Notes: generated by a model from the letters alone, not told the origin. A stretch of DNA of 64,000 nucleotides from Escherichia coli (GCF_002854065.1 NZ_CP024147.1); one strand, 5' to 3'; numbered from the stretch's first letter, positions 6,932-8,996 are shown. Translations and numbers: made by a program.

Positions 6932-7936
6932 GTGAAACTGGATGAAATCGCTCGGCTGGCGGGAGTGTCGCGGACCACTGCAAGCTATGTTATTAACGGC
7001 AAAGCGAAGCAATACCGTGTGAGCGACAAAACCGTTGAAAAAGTCATGGCTGTCGTGCGTGAGCACAATTACCACCCGAACGCCGTGGCAGCTGGGCTTC
7101 GTGCTGGACGCACACGTTCTATTGGTCTTGTGATCCCCGATCTGGAGAACACCAGCTATACCCGCATCGCTAACTATCTTGAACGCCAGGCGCGGCAACG
7201 GGGGTATCAACTGCTGATTGCCTGCTCAGAAGATCAGCCAGACAACGAAATGCGCTGTATTGAGCACCTTTTACAGCGTCAGGTCGATGCCATTATTGTT
7301 TCGACGTCGTTGCCTCCTGAGCATCCTTTTTATCAACGCTGGGCTAACGACCCGTTCCCGATTGTCGCGCTTGACCGCGCCCTCGATCGTGAACACTTTA
7401 CCAGCGTGGTTGGTGCCGATCAGGATGATGCCGAAATGCTGGCGGAAGAGTTACGTAAGTTTCCCGCCGAGACGGTGCTTTATCTTGGCGCGCTGCCGGA
7501 GCTTTCTGTCAGCTTCCTGCGTGAACAAGGTTTCCGTACTGCCTGGAAAGATGATCCGCGCGAAGTGCATTTTCTGTATGCCAATAGCTATGAGCGGGAG
7601 GCGGCTGCCCAGTTATTCGAAAAATGGCTGGAAACGCATCCGATGCCGCAGGCGCTGTTCACAACGTCGTTTGCGTTGTTGCAAGGGGTGATGGATGTCA
7701 CGCTACGTCGCGATGGTAAACTGCCTTCTGACCTGGCAATTGCCACCTTTGGCGATAACGAACTGCTCGACTTCTTACAGTGCCCGGTGCTGGCAGTGGC
7801 TCAACGTCACCGCGATGTCGCAGAGCGTGTGCTGGAGATTGTCCTGGCAAGCCTGGACGAACCACGTAAGCCAAAACCTGGTTTAACGCGCATTAAACGT
7901 AATCTCTATCGCCGCGGCGTGCTCAGCCGTAGCTAA
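6932..7936 (+). CDS. cra: catabolite repressor/activator (LacI/GalR family)
   Basis: 334-aa [40 protein letters not shown]... with a GTG start at 6932; N-terminal HTH. Confidence 0.95.
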
Positions 7937-8456
7937 GCTGCGAACAAAAATACGCGCCAGGTGAATTTCACTCTGGCGCGTAGAGTACGGGACTGGACAT
8001 CAATATCCTTAAAGTAAATAAGACTATTCCTGACTATTATTGATAAATGCTTTTAAACCCGCCCGTTAATTAACTCACCAGCTGAAATTCACAATAATTA
8101 AGTGATATCGACAGCGCGTTTTTGCATTATTTTGTTACATGCAGAGATGAATTGCCGATTTAACAAGCACTTTTCTTTGCTTTTGCGCAAACCCGCTGGC
8201 ATCAAGCGCTACACAGACGCAACAGGGACTGTTAACCGGGGAAGATATGTCCTAAAATGCCGCTCGCGTCGCAAACTGACACTTTATATTTGCTGTGGGA
8301 AATAGTGAGTCATTTTAAAACGGTGATGACGATGAGGTTTTTTTTCTTACAGCTATTCATAACGTTAATTTGCTTCGCACGTTGGACGTAAAATAAACAA
8401 CGCTGATATTAGCCGTAAACATCGGGTTTTTTACCTCGGTATGCCTTGTGACTGGC

Positions 8457-8520
8457 TTGACAAGCTTTTCCTCCGCTCCGTAAACTCCTTTCAGTGGGAA
8501 ATTGTGGGGCAAAGTGGGAA
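8457..8520 (+). promoter_or_regulatory. mraZ promoter (Pmra) with a triple TGGGN direct-repeat operator
   Basis: ttgaca (8457-8462), 18-nt spacer, taaact (8481-8486); then gtgggaa / gtgggg / gtgggaa starting at 8494, 8504, 8514 (10-bp phasing), just upstream of mraZ. Confidence 0.6.
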
Positions 8521-8537
8521 TAAGGGGTGAGGCTGGC

Positions 8538-8996
8538 ATGTTCCGGGGAGCAACGTTAGTCAATCTCGACAGCAAAGGGCGCTTATCAGTGCCTACCCGT
8601 TATCGGGAACAGCTGCTTGAGAACGCTGCCGGTCAAATGGTTTGCACCATTGACATTCATCACCCGTGCCTGCTGCTTTACCCCCTGCCTGAATGGGAAA
8701 TTATCGAGCAAAAATTATCGCGTCTGTCGAGCATGAACCCGGTTGAGCGCCGTGTGCAGCGCCTACTGTTAGGTCATGCCAGCGAATGTCAGATGGATGG
8801 CGCAGGTCGATTGTTAATCGCGCCAGTACTGCGGCAACATGCCGGGCTGACAAAAGAAGTGATGCTGGTTGGACAGTTCAACAAGTTTGAGCTGTGGGAT
8901 GAAACAACCTGGCATCAACAGGTCAAGGAAGATATCGACGCAGAGCAGTTGGCTACCGGAGACTTATCGGAGCGACTGCAGGACTTGTCTCTATAA
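8538..8996 (+). CDS. mraZ: division/cell-wall cluster transcriptional regulator MraZ
   Basis: Track ORF 8502..8996 trimmed to the ATG at 8538 ([23 protein letters not shown]..., 152 aa). Confidence 0.94.

Follow-up and report, generated by a model that had tools for sequence, protein, structure and literature searches.

The dcw cluster of Escherichia coli is preceded by a long spacer that separates its first gene, mraZ, from cra. Does the repeat-bearing promoter at the mraZ end of this spacer include an operator for the product of that first gene, and does the rest of the spacer have a regulatory content of its own? We addressed both questions in the window, that is, the whole 64,000-nucleotide stretch of E. 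coli DNA that was analysed (NZ_CP024147.1). Positions are those of the window; adding 81096 gives the MG1655 coordinate (offset checked).

The cra-mraZ spacer

Open reading frames and annotation of the 64-kb window gave the gene order ilvIH-cra-mraZ-rsmH-ftsL-ftsI. Between the last base of the cra stop codon (7936) and the mraZ ATG (from 8538) lies a spacer of 601 bp (7937-8537), in agreement with the preliminary description of a gene-free stretch of 600 bp. The GC content falls to 0.30-0.41 in places, and the K-12 RefSeq annotation has no feature inside the spacer. The K-12 and window spacers align without gaps and with few substitutions. Of 5426 complete E. coli genomes, 5422 contain the spacer; among the matches listed, no annotated feature lies within it except one IS1 insertion. 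This element, carried by a poultry isolate (strain MB53, NZ_CP073939.1), lies at about 8035-8049, upstream of the conserved blocks A to C described below, so this part of the spacer can be split. Three of the 5424 spacer matches are records labelled plasmid.

For comparison, 80 Enterobacteriaceae loci were retrieved through MraZ and three further loci were added; operator counts refer to 85 sequences. Conservation was expressed as mean identity to the window sequence, mapped on window coordinates, over about 80 Enterobacteriaceae loci. Spacer length was 553-733 bp in all 79 of the other Enterobacteriaceae loci. The features discussed below are collected in Table 1.

Table 1. Features of the cra-mraZ spacer and of mraZ, in window coordinates
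Feature	Position	Strand	Details
Hairpin just 3' of cra	7951-7982		Perfect 10 bp, inverted repeat I3; terminator-like
Short motif	8017-8033		AATAAGACTATTCCTGA / TAAGACTATTCCTG (TAAGAnnATTCC in most genera); mean identity 0.69 (flanks 0.27-0.32)
Minor start	8047	+	K-12 89143; score 6.2; -10-like TATTAT 8035-8040
Block A	8119-8141	+	GTTTTTGCATTATTTTGTTACATGC; mean identity 0.82; 12/23 columns at least 97%; -10-like TATTTT 8128-8133; ends at the weak start 8141
Weak start	8141	+	K-12 89237; score 2.1; -10-like TATTTT
Block B	8228-8292	+	-35-like CTGTTA 8229-8234, 18-nt spacer, invariant -10 TAAAAT 8253-8258, GC-rich stretch, start 8264
Upstream start	8264	+	K-12 89360; score 9.4; 6 nt past the invariant TAAAAT
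Weak AU-rich hairpin, then TTTT 8313-8316	8277-8316	+	5' arm conserved, 3' arm variable yet complementary
Block C	8339-8377		T-run, then CTTACAGCTATTCATAACGTTAATTTGCTTCGC; mean identity 0.88
Main promoter Pmra / mraZ1p	8457-8486	+	TTGACA 8457-8462, 18-nt spacer, TAAACT 8481-8486
mraZ/dcw operon start	8493-8494	+	Kim 2012 and Cappable-seq; leader 44-45 nt
MraZ operator	8494-8527	+	GTGG(G) boxes at 8494, 8504 and 8514, degenerate in-phase GGGG at 8524
Shine-Dalgarno and mraZ ATG	8529-8540	+	GAGG 8529-8532; ATG 8538-8540
mraZ	8538-8996	+	152 aa, two MraZ domains

The hairpin that follows cra is flanked 5' by an A-run (7943-7949) but lacks a + strand T-run 3' of it, and thus reads as an intrinsic terminator of the minus strand. 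It was not called by a simple terminator scan. In other genera the hairpin is accompanied by T-runs, either on the + strand or on both sides.

The main promoter and the MraZ operator

The near-consensus sigma70 promoter noted in the preliminary description was recovered at the same place: Pmra matches the consensus at 10 of 12 positions and is the best promoter-like site in 7800-8700. Its 18-nt spacer is itself nearly invariant, and mean identity over 8452-8493 is 0.92. Within this spacer, position 8476 is A in K-12 (CCTCAGCTCC) and C in the window strain and in all 79 other species; published K-12 probes carry the A. Mean identity reaches 0.95 over 8524-8540.

Two single-base maps place the start of the mraZ transcript. 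Kim 2012 reported the E. coli start at 89589 (8493), which gives a 45-nt leader; a leader of this length was also seen in Klebsiella pneumoniae. Cappable-seq puts the start at 89590 (8494), on the G that opens box 1, and its score of 27.2 makes it the strongest + strand start in the spacer. Transcription thus begins downstream of 8486, as the promoter assignment had predicted, 7-8 nt past the -10 hexamer and on repeat 1. The older literature gives a 38-nt leader starting at 8500; the two newer maps are consistent with one another and with where the -10 hexamer lies. At Pmra, a sigma-70-dependent, Gre-sensitive pause has been validated; its position, +14/15, falls within box 2.

Other sites and reports touch this region. 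A weak PdhR probe spans 8438-8481, and CRP genomic SELEX lists mraZ. The sequence TGTGACTGGCTTGACA at 8447-8462 is a CRP-like half-palindrome centred near -40 of Pmra, of which the TGTGA half is not kept in Klebsiella and other genera. A second promoter-like site at 8070-8098 (TTAACT, 17 nt, AATAAT) was discarded, having no mapped start near 8105 and being poorly conserved. Inside mraZ, a Term-seq 3' end and a weak Cappable-seq start are both listed at position 8687 (MG1655 89783).

Immediately downstream of the -10 box, the three repeats of the preliminary description were found exactly where it had put them, phased at 10 bp. An exact copy of GTGGG-N5-GTGGG-N5-GTGGG occurs once in the 64-kb window, and with up to 2 mismatches shuffled sequences gave an expectation of 0.17 matches. 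The shorter pattern GTGG-N6-GTGG-N6-GTGG lies upstream of mraZ in all 85 Enterobacteriaceae sequences, so the repeats are not a product of chance. The three GTGGG boxes are confined to the two E. coli sequences of the 85, box 3 being GTGGT, GTGGC or GTGGA elsewhere. Judged from these alignments, in which the boxes are invariant and some positions between them vary, the family-wide conserved unit is GTGG every 10 nt and not GTGGG(a/g); the latter unit, as first proposed, holds for E. coli but not across the family. A fourth in-phase box, G[GT]GG, overlaps the Shine-Dalgarno region in 70 of the 85 sequences; in E. coli this is the GGGG at 8524, which overlaps the ribosome-binding region.

Insertions in the operator also keep this period. 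An insertion of exactly 10 nt after box 3 was found in 23 loci from several genera, including Buttiauxella and Cedecea. It falls at the equivalent of 8519-8523 in L054, L056, L057, L060, L064, L067, L069-L071, L073, L077, L078 and L081-L083, and it often begins GGGG or GGGT. On this evidence the insertion looks like the gain of a repeat unit with the phase kept.

A partial copy of boxes 1-2 was seen elsewhere in the spacer: TTGCTGTGGGAAATAGTGAGTCA at 8290-8312 is 78% identical to 8489-8511 and lies about 30 nt 3' of the 8264 start. It occurs in E. coli only and is not conserved even in E. albertii.

The protein that would read these boxes is encoded directly downstream. The mraZ product contains two PF02381 stretches (Pfam, E = 4e-47). 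It keeps the DNA-binding residues known for MraZ, namely two DXXXR motifs (D11-S-K13-G-R15 and D87-G-A-G-R91, spanning D11-R15 and D87-R91), with K13 and R15. In the cryo-EM study of Mycoplasma genitalium MraZ, the boxes are GTG(G/T) with 6-nt spacers, hence a 10-nt period, and the start site lies within box 1; one cradle (K13, R15, R86) engages each box, binding is cooperative, and the ring oligomer opens on DNA. As related in two later papers, Eraso et al. 2014 (J Bacteriol 196:2053) found that E. coli MraZ represses Pmra via repeats 3' of the -10 box. The E. coli Pmra of that work is the identical locus and element; the window strain differs from K-12 by few substitutions.

The repeats of Bacillus subtilis, M. 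genitalium and Burkholderia cenocepacia are like those of E. coli in being direct repeats with a GTG core and a 10-nt period, placed between the -10 box and mraZ and overlapping the start; cooperative autorepression has been reported for them. Box number and the split between box and spacer vary: three GTGG[A/T]G separated by 4 nt, four GTG(G/T) separated by 6 nt and four 7-nt repeats separated by 3 nt. The protein assemblies differ as well, E. coli MraZ having been reported as a dodecamer rather than an octamer.

Taken as the definition of an MraZ-controlled dcw promoter, the following were all found at this locus: mraZ-rsmH-ftsL-ftsI downstream; three or more direct repeats built on a GTG(G/T) core at a 10-nt period; and repeats that lie 3' of the -10 box (which ends at 8486) and overlap the start (8493/8494, two datasets). 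The best explanation, to which we assign a probability of about 90%, is that the locus is Pmra, the main dcw promoter, with the MraZ autoregulatory operator. This is the identity given to the repeats in the preliminary description, and it is supported by the position of mraZ 3' of them, by the +1 on box 1 and by the literature on Pmra repression. The feature is already known, since later papers identify Pmra with the operator of MraZ autorepression (Eraso 2014). Its anatomy, start site and conservation are established here; MraZ binding and repression come from other work. With respect to the earlier account of Pmra, the leader measures 44-45 nt with +1 on box 1, not 38 nt, and the comparison adds the GTGG unit, the fourth in-phase box and the unit-length indels. 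The E. coli repeats themselves have been described as TGGGN.

In the mechanism that we propose, RNA polymerase would start at 8493/8494, where three GTGG-core boxes run from +1 through the first 25 nt of the leader. MraZ, the product of the first gene and an oligomeric AbrB/SpoVT-type protein, would set one DNA-binding cradle (K13, R15 and the arginine of the second DXXXR motif) on each box along one face of the helix. Cooperative binding over +1 to about +30 would then lower transcription of mraZ and the downstream genes, and we infer that repression is by occlusion. A survey of synthetic promoters found activation by MraZ from a +1 site, and occlusion is therefore not the sole possible outcome.

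Two other readings of the repeats were weighed. The first is that these G-rich repeats form a G-quadruplex, in DNA or in the 5' leader RNA, instead of or besides serving as a protein operator. The E. coli sequence at 8496-8527 does fit four runs of at least 3 G with loops of 5-7 nt, and a quadruplex at the mraZ promoter has been discussed for Staphylococcus aureus. The canonical motif (four runs of at least 3 G, loops of 1-7 nt) is, however, present in 2 of the 85 sequences, both from E. coli, which speaks against selection for a quadruplex. Conservation falls instead on GTGG with its strict 10-nt period, 10-nt indels included, a signature of protein phasing. The folding of the 67-nt leader is also unremarkable (z = 0.13, from a program that does not model quadruplexes), and we regard a quadruplex as improbable. 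According to the second reading, the repeats act chiefly in the mRNA, as a ribosome standby site or in the control of mraZ translation, and their phasing on DNA is incidental. The boxes do lie entirely inside the transcribed leader, and the fourth overlaps the Shine-Dalgarno region. But an RNA element would not be expected to show a strict 10-nt period or unit-length indels, no stable structure is predicted, and EMSA, cryo-EM and reporter assays have shown MraZ binding to homologous boxes from other phyla. We consider a primary role in the mRNA very improbable, and retain the MraZ operator as the reading of the repeats.

Conserved blocks and transcription starts upstream of Pmra

Upstream of Pmra, the spacer shows four conserved islands amid diverged sequence; the short motif and blocks A, B and C are listed in Table 1. 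The segments between blocks have mean identities of 0.27-0.55, those next to blocks B and C 0.32-0.55. The 4-fold degenerate sites of mraZ (within 8538-8993), taken as the neutral baseline, have a mean identity of 0.59, with 11% of sites at least 97% conserved. The three upstream blocks are conserved about as well as Pmra, and above this baseline. In the preliminary description the upstream 500 bp were without annotated function and held nothing but a weak ORF; the first part stands as far as annotation goes, but strongly conserved blocks and mapped starts are present.

These values bear on the view that the spacer outside Pmra is neutral filler or a small-protein gene. Nothing is annotated there, ORFs of 67, 44 and 21 aa exist, and one isolate tolerates an IS1 element in the spacer. 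The blocks, however, lie far above the neutral baseline, which speaks against filler. The 67-aa ORF does exist as first described (8102-8305, GTG start), but it is intact in just the two E. coli of 80 sequences and has no Pfam match; it is not a gene. ORF44 is intact in 3 of 80 sequences and ORF21 in 5 of 80, and the 67-, 44-, 35- and 21-aa ORFs were all rejected as genes, being neither conserved nor matched to any family. The blocks moreover carry 1-2 nt indels and lack a pattern of third-position variation. On sequence grounds a coding role of the spacer is excluded, and this view as a whole is extremely improbable.

Block B stands out among the islands. Mean identity is 0.86 in its upstream part (8228-8236) and 0.91 in its main part (8247-8292), and its initial transcribed sequence, GTCGCAAACTGACACTTTATATTT, is near-invariant. 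The core that survives in the most divergent genomes, TAAAATGCCGnnCGnGTCGCAAAC, comprises the -10 hexamer, the GC-rich stretch and the first 12 transcribed nt. Block B is a single-copy element; 5376 of 5423 E. coli genomes carry it at 99% identity or more, a level that the whole spacer reaches in just 457. Its core motif was found in 112 stretches of metagenome contigs, 80 of which are listed as loci. In all 71 listed loci with enough flank, it lies 283-299 bp upstream of an mraZ that is at least 86% identical to that of E. coli. These positions mark the core as specific to this locus rather than shared across a regulon; we rejected a regulon-wide motif, given the single copy in E. coli and the metagenome occurrences upstream of mraZ, one contig (L163) aside. 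In that contig, a Klebsiella-like spacer breaks after the block B hairpin into AT-rich foreign DNA at ~488-560, and the break is either an insertion or a chimeric assembly.

The spacing of the blocks is also constrained. In 84 genomes, block B is separated from block C by 99-102 bp and block C from the -35 of Pmra by 102-105 bp; the A-to-B distance has two modes, which differ by about 10 bp. The short motif at 8017-8033 resembles the RcsAB box, TaAGaatatTCctA; block C and this motif have CTATTC in common (direct repeat D2). Phrase searches of the literature returned no paper on the cra-mraZ spacer and no published function for blocks B and C.

Cappable-seq starts, considered here on the + strand, include three in the spacer besides that of Pmra, each 6-8 nt past a -10-like hexamer. 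Those at 8141 and 8264 coincide with blocks A and B; outside Escherichia, the TATTAT that precedes the start at 8047 is not kept. Of the three, the start at 8264 is the strongest, and it comes from one dataset; it is missing from the less sensitive map of Kim 2012, in E. coli and in Klebsiella. The -35 of the block B promoter is poor. A massively parallel reporter tiling by Urtecho et al. found two distinct promoters in the mraZ promoter region. No + strand start was mapped by Cappable-seq in block C.

The RNA that would begin at 8264 was examined for structure. In every lineage an AU hairpin can form after block B, followed by a short T-run. It is weak, at about -6 kcal/mol, and over 68 sequences its mean z is lower on the + strand (-1.64) than on the - strand (-0.68). 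RNAalifold gave no consensus hairpin and no compensatory pairs after block B, and an E-value-mode Rfam search of 7700-8800 returned no match. This weak AU hairpin with its U4 is the sole terminator candidate for the 8264 transcript; the terminator scan called nothing, and the Term-seq tables examined list no 3' end within the spacer. The hairpin and U-tract could possibly act as a pause, an attenuator or a weak terminator of the 8264 transcript.

Several further structures were tried and set aside. A stem that would close the 5' end onto the stretch preceding the T8 run looks good in E. coli but is not conserved (mean z = -0.23), and the fold of the whole 297-nt upstream leader is not better than shuffles (z = -1.17). 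A pairing of GCAAA in block B with TTTGC in block C was dropped, TTTGC being lost or shifted in the most divergent species. A stable small RNA from the spacer likewise found no support, the Term-seq tables examined containing no 3' end for one and the SMRT-Cappable-seq supplements giving no sign of it.

Possible roles of the upstream region

We hold with moderate confidence that block B is best read as a second promoter, conserved across the family, with a leader or attenuator. Its transcript, starting at 8264, would carry the invariant first 12-30 nt, the weak AU hairpin and the U-tract, and this leader or attenuator would feed into Pmra or interfere with it.

A precedent is offered by UpsM of Rhodobacter sphaeroides, a 5'-leader sRNA from upstream of mraZ, with a far-upstream promoter, a transcript directed toward dcw and a hairpin with a U-tract. 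The 8264 start and its hairpin would be analogous to UpsM in position, and no sequence similarity would be expected. Like such a small RNA, the 8264 transcript has its own promoter with a mapped 5' end (one dataset), but a structure supported by covariation was not found. Unlike UpsM, the E. coli locus has a strong mraZ-proximal promoter and a weak hairpin, and neither an abundant small transcript nor a 3' end has been recorded there.

Promoters with a GC-rich discriminator, such as rrn P1, are under stringent control by ppGpp and DksA. Block B resembles this type in that TAAAAT is followed directly by GCCGCTCGCG before 8264 and in its poor -35, a likeness that is one of resemblance only. Unlike at rrn P1-type promoters, conservation runs well beyond +1 and is not explained by a discriminator alone.

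More broadly, the spacer may be an undescribed regulatory module of the Enterobacteriaceae, made up of the 8264 promoter, the invariant start sequence, the hairpin with its U-tract and block C as a partner, the two parts lying ~100 bp from each other and from Pmra. Such a module would set dcw expression independently of MraZ, whether through an attenuated leader, a small RNA or a platform for bound proteins. We put this forward as a tentative proposal.

The alternative is that blocks A, B and C are DNA sites for regulators or architectural proteins acting on Pmra, and that the weak starts are by-products. The spacing of the blocks, fixed within 2 bp (about 100 and 103 bp) despite diverged intervening sequence, would suit such an arrangement, as would the A-B distance modes about 10 bp apart, the want of a mapped + strand start in block C and that of covariation and of an Rfam match. 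The PdhR and CRP reports, moreover, show that several factors bind this region. Against it, what is invariant in block B is a -10 hexamer at a fitting position plus the first 12-30 transcribed nt, with a capped 5' end mapped, and the hairpin signal is strand-specific. Nor did the blocks, compared by eye with known consensuses (sigma-54, LexA, NrdR, PurR, Cra, IHF, ArcA, marbox and boxA), give a convincing fit. We consider an exclusively DNA-based role of all three blocks less likely than not, yet a live rival of the promoter reading; for block C, a protein-binding platform acting on Pmra is the sole idea that we can offer. For block B, the second promoter with its leader or attenuator remains our preferred reading.

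Confirming the textbook entry point of the dcw cluster adds little in itself. The useful corrections concern its detail: the +1 on box 1, the GTGG unit with its 10-nt period, box 4 over the ribosome-binding site, and the gain and loss of whole 10-nt units. Blocks B and C, with their promoter-like conservation and their fixed distance to Pmra, would provide a testable handle on the tuning of dcw expression beyond MraZ.
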